A program made the translations under genes and the position numbers. From Patescibacteria group bacterium (GTDB lineage Bacteria; Patescibacteriota; JABMPQ01; JAHIRA01), in NCBI GenBank assembly GCA_018818205.1, contig JAHISJ010000002.1, positions 3,895 to 67,894 of the forward strand: DNA of 64,000 nucleotides, given 5' to 3'. Positions 27,401 through 35,655 of the stretch are shown here, piece by piece. Each line of letters begins with the position of its first letter. The first letter of the stretch is position 1. Under the pieces are notes generated by a model. That model did not search any database and was not told the origin of the DNA. It was given only the letters and a program-made list of their open reading frames with translations.

Positions 27401-27816
27401 TTTATAGAGAGTTTGATCCTGGCTCAGGGTGAACGCTGGCGGCGTGTTTTAGGCATGCAAGTCGTACATTCTTCGTGAGTGTGGCAGACGGGTGAGTAAC
27501 GCATTGGTAATCCAACTTGAGGTTTGGCATAACCCTTCGAAAGGGGGGATAATTCCAAATGGTCATGGGGGGTCTAAAGACTTCCCATGTAAAGCTTCGG
27601 CGCCTCGAGAGGAGCCTGTGTCCCATCAGCTTGTTGGTAGGGTAATGGCCTACCAAGGCTATGACGGGTAACTGGTCTGAGAGGATGATCAGTCACATCG
27701 GAACTGAGACACTGTCCGAACTCCTACGGGAGGCTGCAGTCAAGAATCTTCCGCAATGGGGGAAACCCTGACGGAGCGACGCCGCGTGACCGATGAAGCC
27801 CTTCGGGGTGTAAAGG
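27401..27816 (+). rRNA. rrs: 16S ribosomal RNA, 5' portion (gene continues through 28987)
   Basis: Universal AGAGTTTGATCCTGGCTCAG near the 5' end, CCTACGGGAGGCTGCAG at the 341F site; conserved 16S sequence runs up to the V3 hairpin. Confidence 0.95.
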
Positions 27817-27961
27817 TCTTTTAATAGGGAAAAAGTCTAGCCCTTTCTGTCTTTTATCAACTTTTTGTGTACAGTAAATAGGACATAAAAAGTGAAGATA
27901 GAAAGTGCACAGTCTTTTGGGCTAGAAGCCAGAAAGGGCTAGATTGATGGTACCTATTGAA
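27817..27961 (+). rRNA. rrs: 16S ribosomal RNA, expanded V3 hairpin segment (about 70 nt longer than typical)
   Basis: The GTAAAG-to-GTGCCAGC interval is about 178 nt, against roughly 105 nt in E. coli. Perfect 15-bp complementary arms GTCTAGCCCTTTCTG (27835-27849) and CAGAAAGGGCTAGAT (27932-27946) close an AT-rich interior. Confidence 0.9.
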
Positions 27962-28987
27962 TAAGCCACGGCTAATCTCGTGCCAGCAGCCGCGGTAATA
28001 CGAGAGTGGCAAGCGTTACCCGGAATCATTGGGCGTAAAGGGTCCGTAGGTGGTTTGAACAGTCGGTTGTTAAATCTTAGGGCTCAACCTTAAGGCCGTA
28101 ACCGAAACTATCAGACTAGAGATAAGGAGAGGCGAGTGGAATTCTCGGTGTAGCAGTAAAATGCGTTAATATCGAGAGGAACACCAAAGGCGAAGGCAGC
28201 TCGCTAGCCTTATTCTGACACTCATGGACGAAAGCGTGGGGAGCGAATGGGATTAGATACCCCAGTAGTCCACGCCGTAAACGCTGGATACTAGGCACAA
28301 GAGGAGTCGACCCCTTTTGTGTCAAAGCTAACGCGTTAAGTATCCCGCCTGGGGAGTACGGTCGCAAGACTAAAACTCAAAGGAATAGACGGGGACCCGC
28401 ACAAGCGGTGGAGCATGTGGTTTAATTCGTCATTAAGCGAAGAACCTTACCGAGGTTTGAAGCCAAAGGAATCCGCCTGAAAGGGATGGAGTGCCGCAAG
28501 GAGCCTTTGGATCAGGTGCTGCATGGCCGTCGTCAGCTCGTGCCGTGAGGTGTACGGTTAAGTCCGGTAACGAGCGCAACCCTTATTCTGTGTTACAATT
28601 TCACACAGAAGACTGCCGGCGTATAGTCGGAGGAAGGTGGGGATGACGTCAGGTCAGCATGGCCCTTTGACACCTCGGGCCACACACGTGCTACAATGGC
28701 TAGTAACAATGAGTCGCGAAACCGTAAGGTGAAGCTAATCTCATCAAACCTAGTCTCAGTTCGGATTGAGGGCTGCAACTCGCCCTCATGAAGTCGGAAT
28801 CGCTAGTAACCGTGGGTCAGCCATACCACGGTGAATACGTTCTCGGGTCTTGTACTCACCGCCCGTCACGTCAAGCGAGTTGGTAACACCCGAAACTCCC
28901 TTAGGGGAACTAAGGTGGGACCAGCGAGAGGGGCGAAGTCGTAACAAGGCACCGGTAGGGGAACCTGTCGGTGGATCACCTCCTTTC
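27962..28987 (+). rRNA. rrs: 16S ribosomal RNA, 3' portion (about 1.59 kb gene total, 27401-28987)
   Basis: GTGCCAGCAGCCGCGGTAATAC, ATTAGATACCC, GCATGGCCGTCGTCAGCTCGTG, GTACACACCGCCCGTCA and GGATCACCTCCTTT at the 3' end. Confidence 0.97.
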
Positions 28988-29085
28988 TAGGGATAATTCT
29001 AGCATCCCAAGGTCGGAACTTGTTTCAAGGAAATGCACATTACATGTGCGCTGGTGTTCTTATCACTATTCAGCGGTTAAGCAAG

Positions 29086-29112
29086 AAAAACCGCTCATAG
29101 CGGCTTTTTTTT
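29086..29112 (+). terminator. rho-independent terminator right after the 16S gene
   Basis: AAAAACCGCT-CAT-AGCGGCTTTTTTTT. Shows that 16S is transcribed on its own. Confidence 0.7.
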
Positions 29113-29132
29113 ATGCACATATTTTGCTATAA

Positions 29133-33344: not shown

Positions 33345-34860
33345 AGAGGTAAAAAAAATCATTTCTGCGTTAAGCTTGAGCAAAAAAGACATACCGCTTC
33401 TTGTGGTCGGATTTATGGCTTCTTTTCTTTCGCGTGGGGTGCTTTTGTTTTCCTTAGGATACAATACAGACGATTTTTCCATGATGCTTGGCCCCACACG
33501 TAACGGGTATCTACTTGTTTCATACGGAAGATGGGGGATAGCGATCGTTCATAAAGGGTTAGCGATGCTTGGCGTTGAAGCAAACTACGGAACACCCTTT
33601 TTAGTCTTCTTTTCATTTATTGCACTTGCCTACTGTGGCGTGCTCCTCTGTAAGATGTGGGGCATACAAGATAAGCTTGTGCTCTCAAGTGTTGTAATAC
33701 TTCTATTTATTGTACATCCGTATCAAAGTGGTATTTACACGTATTCCTTAGCAATAGTTACGGTTGGACTTGCACTTCTTTTCACATTTGTCCCACTCTA
33801 TGTTCTTACGATCAGGAAGTCAAAAATAATCATTGGGCTTTCTGCCATTCTTTTTTGTTTTGCGTTAAGTATCTATCAAATTACTATAAATTATGCGTTG
33901 GTAGTAGTGTTGGTACTTGTATTGTTGACTTTTTTACGCACTGTTAAGAAAGGACAAAAGACTATTAGTGCATTAAAATACGCATTTAAAAAGTCGTCAG
34001 TACATTTTTTTGTTTTGATTTTAGGAACAGCTTTGTATGGCTGTATTTCATGGATTATCATAAAAGTCCTCGCTATTTTACCATATAGTAGAAGTCAGAT
34101 TCTTTCATTTTCTCCTGAGGAGCTTTTTAAGAGAGCTACACAAATTGCTAATCTCTTTTACGAAATTTTGTTTGTTCATGAGGCTATTAATCCGGGCACT
34201 CTTAAGTACATTGCATTGTTCGTTTTAATGGGGAGTATAGTTGCAGTAGCGGTAAATAGTTGCAGAGGAAAAGTGACATCTTTTGTCGTATATTTAGCAC
34301 TCTTGGTGTCAGTTTTTCTTTCTGTAATTGGTATTTCATTAGCGCTCAAGATTTGGTTTTTTGAGCCACGTCTTTATGCGGCAATCGGCCTTGCTTGGGC
34401 CGCAGTAGTGGTAAGTGGCTATCTATCATTTAGAAGTGTATTTGCAAGGAAAGTATTCATTGCATTATCGGTAGTAGTCATTATTGGTTTTATAAGTATT
34501 GATAATCATATCTTTATTGACAGAATACGAATGAATTCGTTTGATCGAGCTCTTTCTAATAGAATAGTAGCAGCACTTGAACAGAATCCAAACAGTGATA
34601 AGGTAGAACGAATAGTTATCTTGGGAGAGTATGAACATCAGCAACCTGTACAGTCAAGTTTTGCATTAGACTCTTTTTCAAAGGGGTATGCCAAAGTTCA
34701 CTTGCTTAACGAATTTACCGGATATAGCTTTTTAAAGCCGAATGAAGCTGACAGTGAAAAAGCAAACCAGGCGTGTTTGAAGGTATCCAAATGGCCAAAT
34801 CCAGAATCAACTATGATTTTTGATGACCTGGGGGTTGTATGTTTGTCTGAAGTAGAATAA
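33322..34860 (+). CDS. polytopic membrane protein, candidate GT-C glycosyltransferase (GtrC/ArnT-role) with C-terminal extracytoplasmic domain
   Basis: 512 aa, about 11-12 TM helices. Acidic YNTDDF motif in the first extracytoplasmic loop as in GT-C enzymes. A roughly 120-aa soluble C-terminal domain. Overlaps the wecE stop. Confidence 0.5.
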   Translation: MIFSKTIEEVKKIISALSLSKKDIPLLVVGFMASFLSRGVLLFSLGYNTDDFSMMLGPTRNGYLLVSYGRWGIAIVHKGLAMLGVEANYGTPFLVFFSFIALAYCGVLLCKMWGIQDKLVLSSVVILLFIVHPYQSGIYTYSLAIVTVGLALLFTFVPLYVLTIRKSKIIIGLSAILFCFALSIYQITINYALVVVLVLVLLTFLRTVKKGQKTISALKYAFKKSSVHFFVLILGTALYGCISWIIIKVLAILPYSRSQILSFSPEELFKRATQIANLFYEILFVHEAINPGTLKYIALFVLMGSIVAVAVNSCRGKVTSFVVYLALLVSVFLSVIGISLALKIWFFEPRLYAAIGLAWAAVVVSGYLSFRSVFARKVFIALSVVVIIGFISIDNHIFIDRIRMNSFDRALSNRIVAALEQNPNSDKVERIVILGEYEHQQPVQSSFALDSFSKGYAKVHLLNEFTGYSFLKPNEADSEKANQACLKVSKWPNPESTMIFDDLGVVCLSEVE

Positions 34861-34883
34861 AAGTGACAGCTAATAATTAACGT

Positions 34884-35522
34884 ATGCAAGACGAGAGTGG
34901 AGTAAGAAAAATTTTAAATGATGGAGTCTTTTATGATTTTCTGCAGAATATTTTAGGTGCTGGAAAGGCACGAGTATGGCTTGCTGAAAACTATTGGAAT
35001 GTAAAAAAAGGAGACTCTATTATCGATATAGGGTGTGGTACAGGAGAAGTGTTGGACTATCTTGACTTTGATATACAATACACTGGGTTCGACGTTAGTA
35101 AAAAATATATTGATGTAGCTCGAAAGAAATATGGTAACCGTGGAAAGTTCAGTATTGGCACTGCTGAAGAATTTCTAAGAAATCCAAATACATTACCTGA
35201 GGCTGACTTGGTGCTTTGTAATGGCCTGCTTCACCATCTTGAAGATAAAGAAGTAATGCAAGTGCTTGAGCTTTCAAAGGAACTATTGGCAGAAAAAGGA
35301 CGCTTAGTGTGTGTAGAGCCTGTATTTCTAAAAAAACAAACGAAGGCGTCCAAGTGGCTTATGAGTAAGGATAGGGGGCAGAATGTTCGTTCTTTTGATG
35401 AGTGGAATAAAATTGTTGGGAAAATCTTTAATACTTTCTCTCTTGATGTTACTACTGGTCTCATTAGGGCTCCCTATGTTCATGTTATAATTACGTGCAA
35501 TAATGTGCCTGATACTGCATAG
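34884..35522 (+). CDS. class I SAM-dependent methyltransferase
   Basis: Motif I IIDIGCGTGEV, motif II DLVLCNGLLHHL, motif III GRLVCVEP. Confidence 0.75.
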   Translation: MQDESGVRKILNDGVFYDFLQNILGAGKARVWLAENYWNVKKGDSIIDIGCGTGEVLDYLDFDIQYTGFDVSKKYIDVARKKYGNRGKFSIGTAEEFLRNPNTLPEADLVLCNGLLHHLEDKEVMQVLELSKELLAEKGRLVCVEPVFLKKQTKASKWLMSKDRGQNVRSFDEWNKIVGKIFNTFSLDVTTGLIRAPYVHVIITCNNVPDTA

Positions 35523-35579
35523 TAGAAACTCTTGTTAATTAGCGTCTATGTGGTATCCTACTTGTGTATTTGAGTACAT

Positions 35580-35655
35580 GGGCCCGTAGCTCAGTTGGTA
35601 GAGCACTTGTTTTGCATACAAGGGGTCAGCGGTTCGAATCCGCTCGGGTCCACCA
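35580..35655 (+). tRNA. tRNA-Ala (anticodon TGC), CCA encoded
   Basis: GGGCCCGTAGCTCAGTTGGTAGAGCACTTGTTTTGCATACAAGGGGTCAGCGGTTCGAATCCGCTCGGGTCCACCA. G3:U70 identity pair, anticodon loop TTTGCAT; this is the canonical rRNA-spacer tRNA. Confidence 0.95.

Follow-up and report, generated by a model that had tools for sequence, protein, structure and literature searches.

How did a 16S rRNA gene and the two tRNAs of the rRNA spacer come to be scattered among protein-coding genes? The question is raised by a 64,000-nt stretch of a Patescibacteria (CPR) genome, referred to here as the window, whose sole RNA genes, according to Rfam and ARAGORN, are a full-length bacterial SSU rRNA, tRNA-Ile(GAT) and tRNA-Ala(TGC). 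A preliminary sequence-only reading had placed the tRNAs, once each, 570 bp and 6.6 kb downstream of 16S, and the measured distances from the 16S 3' end to the tRNA starts are 570 nt and 6594 nt. It had also described a 16S gene standing alone behind a near-consensus promoter, protein genes that keep the spacer tRNAs apart from 16S and from one another, and a downstream region lacking 23S and 5S, and these statements were borne out. The intervening genes are real by coding score, family membership and Pfam/NCBIfam matches. Neither 23S nor 5S was detected in the 64-kb window at Rfam gathering thresholds, no degenerate remnant of either was found in positions 28950-37000 at E<=5, and none lies on the rest of the 68,630-nt source contig, which runs on for 3.9 kb before and 0.7 kb after the window, both stretches being full of protein genes. 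The layout is not a product of chance, since the only two tRNAs of the window are the two canonical spacer tRNAs, which follow 16S in their canonical order and share its strand. The region most probably derives by decay from a canonical 16S-tRNA-Ile-tRNA-Ala-23S-5S operon and is now divided into several small independent transcription units (Table 1).

Table 1. Features of the dispersed rRNA locus, in window coordinates.
Feature	Position	Strand	Evidence
Sigma-70-type promoter-like site of the 16S unit, TTGACA-17-TATATT	27243..27271	+	11/12 positions match
16S leader: boxA-like TTTAACAA fused to 5' arm of processing stem	27299..27322	+	inverted repeat
Complete 16S rRNA gene	27401..28986	+	RF00177, 1441.8 bits, model 1-1533
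16S trailer: 3' arm of processing stem	29057..29080	+	inverted repeat, duplex energy
Intrinsic-terminator-like hairpin + T8 closing the 16S unit	29083..29112	+	-10.4 kcal/mol, z = -3.1
Orphan predicted membrane protein, 103 aa (111-aa ORF, ORF111), GenBank KKH43_00290	29157..29468	+	
Promoter-like site TTCACA-16-TAGAAT, 22 nt upstream of tRNA-Ile	29507..29534	+	10/12 positions match
tRNA-Ile(GAT), CCA encoded	29556..29632	+	Rfam, ARAGORN
Conserved two-helix membrane protein, 84 aa (ORF94 family, smp), KKH43_00300	29773..30027	+	
Terminator-like hairpin + T-run after ORF94	30050..30073	+	-10.4 kcal/mol
GT2 polyprenyl-phosphate glycosyltransferase (ArnC/PgfS-like)	30180..31127	+	Pfam/NCBIfam
WecD-like dTDP-4-amino-4,6-dideoxygalactose acyltransferase (GNAT)	31124..31834	+	170.8 bits, under curated cut-off 219
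ArnE/ArnF-like small SMR-type flippase subunit	31840..32208	+	Pfam/NCBIfam
WecE-type dTDP-4-amino-4,6-dideoxygalactose transaminase	32205..33344	+	619.8 bits vs cut-off 375
GtrII-like polytopic membrane glycosyltransferase	33322..34860	+	PF14264, E = 5e-20
Class I SAM-dependent methyltransferase	34884..35522	+	Pfam/NCBIfam
tRNA-Ala(TGC), G3:U70, CCA encoded	35580..35655	+	Rfam, ARAGORN; G3:U70 read from sequence
AACAATTGAATAGT, exact copy of 16S leader motif	35682..35695	+	sequence match
Terminator-like hairpin + T6 after tRNA-Ala	35703..35730	+	-9.3 kcal/mol, z = -2.1; weak

The promoter-like site that presumably drives 16S is the top-scoring site of its kind across 26.5-37 kb; promoter and terminator calls are consensus matches throughout, and their total count does not exceed that of shuffled sequence. 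The leader and trailer of 16S are complementary over 16 nt without a mismatch and over 5 bp more, and the resulting duplex (-35.3 kcal/mol) makes the trailer the best partner of the leader among 6377 window tiles, the next unrelated site reaching -22.4. The stem displays two compensatory pair changes with respect to L005, a relative with the same leader type, and the boxA-like motif is conserved in the leaders of seven lineages. The leader nevertheless pairs almost equally well with the L005 trailer (-32.8 kcal/mol), so that the stem by itself is no proof of a common genomic origin of the two flanks. It is a likely substrate of RNase III, whose gene, rnc, is located 5 kb upstream of 16S; nusB is also present within the window. 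The terminator had been described as strong and positioned 100 nt past 16S. The hairpin proper (29091-29103) is found 105 nt beyond the gene and has the canonical form, but given its moderate stability the word strong is somewhat generous. From promoter through boxA-like leader to hairpin and U8 tract, 16S would thus constitute a free-standing unit.

The first gene beyond this unit, ORF111, has an in-frame coding score of 0.447, typical of the genome, and is preceded by a separate promoter-like site; a search for homologues returned none but itself. The site ahead of tRNA-Ile is a candidate promoter for this tRNA, which is probably co-transcribed with the 84-aa membrane-protein gene to the terminator-like hairpin at about 30.06 kb. 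The product of the latter gene matched no Pfam family, and belongs to a family of 86 cluster representatives (ORF94 family) in which small proteins from relatives align as one. Homologues of it reside in the Ile/Ala spacer of relatives, or in what is left of that spacer (L113, L119 and L120), and the one in L114 is flanked by no tRNA gene.

Between ORF94 and tRNA-Ala, a six-gene lipid-carrier glycan cluster (30180-35522) is recognized by clear Pfam and NCBIfam matches, of which that of WecE alone exceeds an NCBIfam curated cut-off. The cluster resembles the Arn and Gtr clusters (ArnBC-EF-T; GtrA-GtrB-GtrX) in combining an aminotransferase, a polyprenyl-phosphate GT2, a small SMR-like flippase subunit and a large polytopic transferase, whereas its sugar pathway is WecE/WecD-like (Fuc4NAc type) rather than Ara4N or glucose, and a phage context is absent. 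An Arn/Gtr-like, lipid-carrier-dependent modification of surface glycans with an acetamido-dideoxyhexose is anticipated. The composition of the cluster is native, its tetranucleotide frequencies correlating with those of the left half of the window at 0.949, just as in ordinary 5.3-kb chunks; the GC content of the region is slightly lower, at 36-39%.

Downstream of tRNA-Ala, the leader motif recurs in a 14-nt copy, with a weak terminator-like hairpin after it, at the spot where a 23S leader would formerly have begun. The copy is of moderate significance, marginally over background, as 7 of 2000 shuffles score equally well. A related motif sits ahead of 23S in L113, and the copy is possibly a relic of the 23S leader or of a spacer boxA.

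A comparison with related lineages reveals intermediate states of this arrangement. The closest protein matches are distant (at best 58% identity for TrmD and 53% for PotD), and because only distant relatives were retrieved, we infer the order of evolutionary events from distant lineages. In L113, tRNA-Ile, the ORF94 homologue smp, tRNA-Ala, a NUDIX gene, a promoter-like site, a boxA-like motif and 23S follow each other. Parts of the same core are found in L119 (tRNA-Ile and smp, plus a partial second copy of the 3' half of tRNA-Ile) and in L120 (a tRNA-Ile-like remnant, smp and tRNA-Ala), and the gap from smp to tRNA-Ala measures 20 nt in L113 and 3 nt in L120. Seen against these arrangements, the window resembles this core after the gain of a 5.3-kb gene cluster and the loss of 23S. 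Synteny of trmD and 16S is kept in L005, L006, L007, L008 and L010, with 16S identities of 68-78%. In L008, 16S and its terminator are followed by protein genes only for 8 kb; in L005, 16S is followed by a stem, a terminator, a membrane ORF, tRNA-Ala and then protein genes. Both lack 23S. The unlinking of 16S from 23S therefore appears to be ancestral in the clade.

These intermediate states point to a decayed 16S-Ile-Ala-23S operon whose spacer acquired coding DNA. The ancestral core of the clade would already have contained a protein gene, in the order tRNA-Ile, small membrane protein, tRNA-Ala, 23S. In the lineage of the window, the glycan cluster would then have arrived between the small membrane-protein gene and tRNA-Ala, and ORF111 between 16S and tRNA-Ile, whereas the link to 23S would have been lost by rearrangement, with the 23S and 5S genes departing from the locus. 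The earlier proposal of a spacer invaded by coding DNA thus finds comparative support in L113, L119 and L120, but insertion alone leaves the absence of 23S over more than 35 kb downstream of 16S unexplained, and a rearrangement or relocation is needed besides.

The sequence-only reading had also cautioned against misassembly, and with good reason. Were the two halves of the window, the left reaching to 16S and the right starting at the 3' end of this gene, derived from different loci or organisms and joined through the conserved 16S, the 16S-ORF111-tRNA-Ile arrangement would be an artefact. A second, independent short-read assembly of the same organism is chimeric inside this very 16S, and both of its ENA contigs turn foreign near helix 44. 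Contig k141_801820 is 100% identical to the window through 28875 and continues with a different 16S 3' end, tRNA-Ile/Met/Phe/Pro and lgt, while k141_1420916 is 100% identical only from 28934, its initial ~230 nt representing a third 16S type. In addition, Logan contigs end at 16S and at both tRNAs, and the helix 44 sequence 28876-28933 is found in the window only. However, this helix is short yet self-consistent and self-complementary, and the tail of the ENA contig is clearly foreign (30% GC vs 40%, tetranucleotide correlation 0.77), whereas the 3.1 kb after the window 16S correlate with the left half at 0.947 and the two halves with each other at 0.979. The left leader pairs with the right trailer along the whole stem, including bases specific to the lineage and not shared by L005. 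L003 and L004, the best relatives by TrmD, carry trmD a few kb from homologues of the window genes at 43-46 kb, and L003 additionally holds homologues of those at 60-63 kb. Finally, the junctions over the 76-nt tRNAs recur in a k=141 ENA contig. Stem, composition and synteny favour the join across 16S as it stands in the window, and we regard a chimera as improbable.

A genuine locus could also have been split recently, if the glycan cluster were an island integrated site-specifically at tRNA-Ile/tRNA-Ala, in the manner of phage-borne gtr clusters, into a compact pair. The short smp to tRNA-Ala gaps of L113 and L120 mark 5.5 kb of the window as extra, the make-up of the cluster and its slightly lower GC are compatible with such an origin, and the duplicated tRNA-Ile half of L119 and the remnant of L120 hint at recombination at tRNA-Ile in the clade. 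Nonetheless, 29-36 kb contains no integrase or transposase, the window has no att-like direct repeats or duplicated tRNA fragments, and codon scores and tetranucleotide composition are indistinguishable from the rest of the genome. The insertion seems real on comparative grounds, but neither recent nor demonstrably integrase-mediated, and the difference could instead reflect a deletion in the other lineages; a recent mobile island is unlikely, if slightly less so than a chimera. That one long transcript, helped by boxA-dependent antitermination, still runs from 16S through the tRNAs and the genes between them to a distant 23S is scarcely credible. The genes from 27.4 to 39 kb do share one strand, boxA-like elements occur in the leader and after tRNA-Ala, and nusB is present, but 23S is missing from the 35 kb downstream, terminator-like hairpins with U-runs follow 16S, ORF94 and tRNA-Ala, and ORF111 and tRNA-Ile each have a separate promoter-like site. 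Moreover, the processing stem encloses 16S only, and even the nearby 23S of L113 has its own promoter-like site. A decayed operon, divided into small units, remains our preferred reading.

The E. coli type rrn operon, reportedly described by Berg, Squires and Squires in 1989, carries Ile/Ala spacer tRNAs and boxA antitermination signals in leader and spacer. The window shares with it the order 16S, tRNA-Ile(GAT), tRNA-Ala(TGC) on one strand, a CTTTAACAA-type boxA leader, an RNase III-type stem formed by the 16S flanks and a second boxA-like copy at the would-be 23S leader. By contrast, it has no 23S or 5S, terminator-like sites lie inside the former operon, and the RNA genes stand 0.57 kb and 5.9 kb apart, with coding DNA in between. 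A single-copy 16S apart from 23S-5S in a small genome is known from Buchnera, Wolbachia and Mycoplasma gallisepticum (cited in PMC8172020), although CPR bacteria fall outside the classical endosymbionts. Borrelia burgdorferi offers the closest functional analogue that has been studied: there, spacer tRNAs are likewise apart from each other and from rRNA genes, and 16S-tRNA-Ala, tRNA-Ile and two copies of 23S-5S constitute three transcription units by experiment (PMC3037291). In Borrelia, 23S-5S lies ~2.5 kb beyond tRNA-Ile, which is inverted, and 16S is co-transcribed with tRNA-Ala; in the window, no 23S occurs over more than 35 kb, the tRNAs have kept their canonical order and orientation, and 16S has a terminator ahead of both of them.

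Among circularised CPR genomes, 27 of 34 have unlinked 16S and 23S at distances of 2.9-310 kb, and other CPR genomes contain tRNAs plus ORFs within the rRNA spacer, as in the window (Lui et al. 2021, PMC8172020). Unlinked rRNA genes were likewise reported for Patescibacteria (Brewer et al. 2019, 10.1101/705046); they prevail in most CPR classes, ABY1, Paceibacteria and Microgenomatia being nearly all unlinked (PMC8172020; 10.1101/705046). The earlier suggestion that the locus goes beyond the simple unlinking known for reduced genomes is overstated, as these surveys and Borrelia already document similar layouts. The scattered layout is real but mostly ordinary, being already known as common in CPR. 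The surveys give distances and categories rather than saying what became of each spacer tRNA or which genes intervene, whereas the window keeps both spacer tRNAs near 16S yet apart. The sole new detail is the conserved small membrane-protein gene kept between them.

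In the 64-kb window, Rfam and ARAGORN detect three RNA genes and no others: a 16S rRNA gene, tRNA-Ile(GAT) and tRNA-Ala(TGC), each of them on the plus strand. These are the genes named in the sequence-only reading, and its distances of the two tRNAs from 16S (570 nt and 6.6 kb) agree with the Rfam and ARAGORN coordinates. That reading had also stated that no 23S or 5S gene follows, which was borne out: an Rfam scan of the 64 kb at gathering thresholds detected neither gene, and a permissive scan of positions 28950-37000 (E<=5) found no LSU or degenerate rRNA remnant. The source GenBank contig ("Patescibacteria group bacterium"; proteins MBU1118305.1 and MBU1118313.1; locus tags KKH43_00290 onward) is 68,630 nt long; it extends beyond the window by 3.9 kb on the upstream side and by 0.7 kb on the downstream side, and both extensions are wholly protein-coding. 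The contig holds no 23S, which therefore lies at least 31 kb upstream or at least 35 kb downstream of 16S. With a complete 16S, no 23S less than 1500 bp away and a host from Patescibacteria, where the trait is clade-wide, the locus appears unlinked in the sense of Brewer et al., who define the state by a 16S-23S distance > 1500 bp.

The 16S gene is preceded by smc, rpsP, a KhpA-like KH gene and trmD and, further upstream, about 5 kb 5' of 16S, by the adjacent genes nusB and rnc (20827-22031). A leader boxA and a processing stem surround the gene, as in a canonical rrn operon. In six further metagenome contigs, 16S is likewise preceded by the leader motif tCTTTAACAATnnAATAGTGATA, in which a boxA core of the E. 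coli type is fused with the arm of the stem. When JGI metagenome contigs were scanned for the conserved leader motif, 24 loci were returned, six of which are 16S leaders, on short contigs; a 23S gene stands beside the motif in none of the 24. Duplexfold of the whole-length leader against the trailer was uninformative because long loops give random sequence good scores, and the stem was therefore judged by exact complements and by 40-mer tiles. Among 6377 window tiles, the best duplex partner of the 40-nt leader segment is the trailer (-35.3 kcal/mol), and the next unrelated partner site reaches -22.4 kcal/mol.

Features of the dispersed rRNA locus in the window, in order of position
Feature	Position	Strand	Basis or detail
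Promoter-like TTGACA-17-TATATT	27243-27271	+	11/12 consensus positions
Leader segment TTAACAATTGAATAGTGATAAGAA, containing boxA-like TTTAACAA	27299-27322	+	inverted-repeat/complement search
16S rRNA, full-length bacterial	27401-28986	+	RF00177, 1441.8 bits, model 1-1533
Trailer segment complementary to leader	29057-29080	+	16-bp perfect run, 3-nt bulge, 5 further pairs
Hairpin CCGCT-CAT-AGCGG + T8 (terminator-like)	29091-29112	+	-10.4 kcal/mol, z = -3.1
Promoter-like TTCACA-16-TAGAAT	22 nt 5' of tRNA-Ile	+	consensus match
tRNA-Ile(GAT)	29556-29632	+	Rfam/ARAGORN
smp (ORF94), 84-aa two-helix membrane protein	29773-30027	+	
Hairpin + T-run after smp	30050-30073	+	terminator-like
Glycan cluster gene 1: ArnC/PgfS-like GT2	within 30180-35522	+	
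Glycan cluster gene 2: WecD-like acyltransferase	within 30180-35522	+	
Glycan cluster gene 3: ArnE/F-like small flippase subunit	within 30180-35522	+	
Glycan cluster gene 4: WecE	within 30180-35522	+	619.8 bits vs NCBI equivalog cut-off 375
Glycan cluster gene 5: GtrII-like polytopic transferase	within 30180-35522	+	
Glycan cluster gene 6: methyltransferase	within 30180-35522	+	
tRNA-Ala(TGC), G3:U70	35580-35655	+	Rfam/ARAGORN

From these sequence signals we infer a scheme of transcription and processing in which 16S would be transcribed by itself from its own promoter, the boxA-like leader might recruit a NusB-dependent antitermination complex, RNase III would cut the leader/trailer stem, and transcription would stop at the hairpin and its U8 tract. 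tRNA-Ile would have a separate transcript that starts at its own promoter, probably includes smp and runs to the terminator near 30.06 kb. The glycan cluster and tRNA-Ala would form one or two more transcription units, and 23S-5S would be expressed from another place in the genome. We propose that, with 23S-5S expressed elsewhere, rRNA stoichiometry would no longer be fixed by co-transcription.

Two local peculiarities of the window 16S were observed. Helix 44 is short, with 81 nt between CCGTCA and AAGTCGTA (28863-28943), as in relatives; the same interval spans roughly 98 nt in E. coli. An additional hairpin of ~108 nt, with 21-nt arms that are 90% complementary, lies at 27836-27943.

The compact, tRNA-only spacer of a canonical rrn operon, devoid of internal terminators, is absent from the window: protein genes intervene, and terminator-like sites follow 16S, smp and tRNA-Ala. 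The ORF between 16S and tRNA-Ile (ORF111, 29157-29468; 103 aa as annotated) encodes an orphan membrane protein with a genome-typical codon score of 0.447 (long genes, 0.417 +/- 0.094; spurious ORFs, maximum 0.275). Homologue searches returned only ORF111 itself, and it does not resemble the membrane ORF located after 16S in the CPR locus L005. The six genes between smp and tRNA-Ala look like a system that uses a lipid carrier to decorate a surface polymer with a Fuc4NAc-type sugar. For this segment, a recent island gained by horizontal transfer was considered and rejected. No integrase or recombinase gene is found at either end of the cluster, and neither an att-like direct repeat of the tRNA 3' end at the far border nor tRNA fragments were detected. 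The composition is native, with a tetranucleotide correlation to the rest of the genome of 0.949, equal to that of ordinary 5.3-kb chunks, and codon scores inside the genome's range.

We seriously considered that the contig might be a chimera joined at 16S. In the ENA MEGAHIT assembly ERZ27247128 the same organism is present as two 36-kb contigs. The contig k141_801820 (L087) matches the window from -3893 to 28875 with 100% identity except for the length of the tandem repeat in rpsP. Past 28875, at the start of helix 44, it continues into another 16S 3' end, tRNA-Ile/Met/Phe/Pro and lgt (L087 12876-16157), a tail with a CPR-like layout. The second contig, k141_1420916 (L001), corresponds to window positions 28934-64736, and its first ~230 nt (L001 1-230) represent a third, very different 16S 3' region. 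Logan contigs of SRR6514274 break off at 16S and within each of the two tRNAs. With the ENA contigs diverging and the Logan contigs stopping, the path across 16S is confirmed by no independent assembly, and the disagreement of independent assemblies at this junction speaks for a chimera. For both 76-nt tRNAs, the k=141 ENA contig shows the same junctions as the window.

The alternative continuations, however, are themselves foreign. The tail of k141_801820 has a GC content of 30% vs 40% and a tetranucleotide correlation with the left half of the window of only 0.77, whereas the 3.1 kb after the window 16S correlate with the left half at 0.947, and the left and right halves with one another at 0.979; the start of k141_1420916 belongs to the third 16S type. 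Moreover, the left-hand leader and the right-hand trailer form a stem of 16+5 bp that is unique within the window, and the two arms match where the stem of L005 differs by compensatory changes (one G-C to A-U, one A-U to G-C). The leader would also pair well with the L005 trailer (-32.8 kcal/mol), however, so that the stem alone indicates the same leader-type clade and not the same genome. Synteny likewise argues against a chimera: in the loci of the best TrmD relatives (L003 and L004), trmD lies a few kb from homologues of window genes at 43-46 kb, and L003 additionally has homologues of window genes at 60-63 kb. Finally, helix 44 of the window is self-consistent. Based on composition, the leader/trailer stem, synteny and helix 44, a chimera is rejected as the main reading, and we are highly confident that the window is correctly joined across 16S. 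The ENA pair provides a concrete case of 16S-mediated chimeras in public metagenome assemblies; since short-read contigs of this organism are chimeric inside 16S, rRNA-adjacent synteny in MAGs needs checking. The ribosomal protein S16 gene (25310-25924), where the window and the ENA contig differ in repeat length (alignment break at 25682-25696), encodes a Lys/Glu-rich C-terminal extension of ~120 aa with a tandem (EEKT)n repeat.

No close relative of the genome was retrieved; the best TrmD match among GTDB genomes is 58% and the best PotD match 53%. Adjacency of trmD and 16S was found in five CPR loci (L005, L006, L007, L008 and L010; 16S identity 68-78%). CPR MAGs are the source of the nearest TrmD loci, and both of those that reach beyond 16S (L005 and L008) are without 23S. 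In L008 (Magasanikiibacteriota), 16S, the leader/trailer complement and a terminator are followed by 8 kb of protein genes only, with neither a tRNA nor 23S in that interval. In L005, the 16S gene contains two introns, the trailer arm complements a leader homologous to that of the window, and a terminator, the membrane ORF, tRNA-Ala(TGC) and protein genes come next, with 23S absent.

Several further observations concern these loci. The order rpsP, KhpA-like KH gene, trmD and 16S is kept across CPR lineages (window 25310-27182; L005-L008 and L010), and rimM and rplS, which usually accompany trmD, are absent from the trmD site in this order. The insertions in the L005 16S (13920-15150; also in L095) lie near the 3' end: one carries an ORF resembling a LAGLIDADG-type homing endonuclease, a candidate judged by eye, and Rfam classes the other as a group I intron (78 bits). 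Owing to these insertions, Rfam places the 16S end at 13971, ~1.2 kb before the true 3' end (~15192). The terminators of the window 16S (AAAAACCGCTCATAGCGGCTTTTTTTT, 29086-29112) and of L008 (AAAACCGCTATATAGCGGTTTTTTT, ~13005-13035) are almost identical, which probably reflects convergence, because the closer relative L005 carries a different hairpin.

The smp gene belongs to the ORF94 family of two-helix membrane proteins of ~85 aa (86 cluster representatives at 50% identity; motif WKTEW..FGRI.WAE.KLG..GGTR.FYKL.G.), to which no Pfam or NCBIfam model matched. Its genomic context is readable in five cases, from lineages with GC contents of 35-56%, and in four of them smp adjoins tRNA-Ile(GAT) and/or tRNA-Ala(TGC). 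In the window, smp lies 140 nt after tRNA-Ile and is separated from tRNA-Ala by 5.5 kb. In the relative L113, the 3' part of tRNA-Ile(GAT) is followed after 38 nt by smp (95-361), after a further 20 nt by tRNA-Ala(TGC), and then by a NUDIX gene, a promoter-like TTGACA-17-TACTAT, a boxA-like TTGAAAACTGAATAGCGACACG and the 5' end of 23S (Rfam LSU, 83 bits). L119 has tRNA-Ile(GAT), a partial duplicate of the tRNA 3' half (129-167) and smp (263-523). L120 has tRNA-Arg, tRNA-Val, a tRNA-Ile-like 3' remnant (~9953-9985), smp (10001-10252) and, 3 nt further, tRNA-Ala(TGC) at the contig end; 16S was not found within 10 kb upstream. In the fifth context, L114, smp (153-386) has no tRNA nearby. The duplicate of L119 and the remnant of L120 suggest past recombination or integration at tRNA-Ile, and tRNA-Ile fragments of this type are absent from the window.

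The recurrence of this arrangement across lineages of 35-56% GC implies that the core of tRNA-Ile, smp and tRNA-Ala is old, with 23S following in at least one lineage. The window is this core with a 5.3-kb cluster between smp and tRNA-Ala and with 23S missing. The sequence-only reading had interpreted the locus as an rRNA operon with a spacer invaded by coding DNA, and the intermediate states in L113, L119 and L120 lend support to that view. We entertain, tentatively and with considerable doubt, that smp is a long-standing resident of the spacer exactly between tRNA-Ile(GAT) and tRNA-Ala(TGC) in a broad clade of Patescibacteria. If so, a protein-coding gene would be co-transcribed with the tRNAs of an rRNA operon and its expression coupled to ribosome synthesis; the core of two tRNAs with the gene between them would outlast the departure of 16S and 23S, the window representing the end state. 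Such a gene would bear on whether reduced CPR cells express proteins through rRNA-linked transcription. A small membrane-protein gene conserved between both spacer tRNAs is undescribed in the literature consulted and, from five contexts, is a potentially new, modest finding.

A possible trace of the lost 23S was found downstream of tRNA-Ala. The 14-mer AACAATTGAATAGT (35682-35695), 26 nt 3' of the tRNA, is identical to leader positions 27301-27314 and is followed by a weak hairpin and T6. It occupies the position where a 23S leader would start and resembles the motif before 23S in L113. In shuffling, 7/2000 sequences scored equally well, which gives moderate support; the best unrelated window segments attain 13-mer-equivalent scores, and a window search found AACAATTGAA inside a gene as well. 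Given this marginal significance and the intragenic copy, the 14-mer was downgraded from firm proof of a former 23S leader; by its sequence and position, it is plausibly a relic of a spacer boxA.

That 16S and 23S genes are commonly unlinked in Patescibacteria has been documented (10.1101/705046). Among circularised CPR genomes, 27/34 are unlinked, at distances of 2.9-310 kb, genomes of ABY1, Paceibacteria and Microgenomatia are almost all unlinked, and in several "operonic" CPR genomes the spacer contains two tRNAs together with one to three ORFs (PMC8172020). The layout had initially been thought to go beyond the known unlinking; this is not sustained, since both the unlinking and the spacer tRNAs and ORFs of CPR bacteria are already on record (PMC8172020, 10.1101/705046). 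The nearest experimentally studied analogue is Borrelia burgdorferi, in which 16S-tRNA-Ala, tRNA-Ile and 23S-5S constitute three separate transcripts (PMC3037291). The spacer tRNAs of the window are likewise parted by non-rRNA DNA, and their promoter-like and terminator-like sites suggest separate transcription. Unlike in Borrelia, no 23S-5S lies within a few kb of the window tRNAs, whereas the relative L113 does have 23S close; unlike in a canonical rrn operon, 23S and 5S do not follow 16S and the spacer tRNAs. The feature is real and the assembly probably correct, and decay of an rRNA operon, as is typical of CPR bacteria, explains the layout well. Its chief value is as a worked anatomy of a CPR rRNA operon falling apart, in which 16S keeps its promoter, boxA, stem and terminator, the spacer tRNAs remain as small units and the gaps are occupied by protein genes; further value lies in the warning about assemblies and in the lead on smp.

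The genes beyond tRNA-Ala encode a PotD-like binding protein, a dCache/HAMP protein, UppP, TsaE and others. The PotD-like gene is followed by the dCache/HAMP gene in the window (35788-38138) and in two loci with PotD homologues, L115 (4375-6987) and L117 (6594-8903). These loci contain no tRNA-Ala and have only this pair in common with the window; L115 may be archaeal, judging from its KaiC-like and TrmB-type neighbour genes. The two other contexts are unrelated, which suggests that the pair is a mobile two-gene sensing module. Elsewhere in the window, an rve-family transposase/integrase gene (~8322-9257, minus strand) lies among the envelope glycosylation genes PMT_2, Wzy_C and GT4, according to the ENA gene calls.
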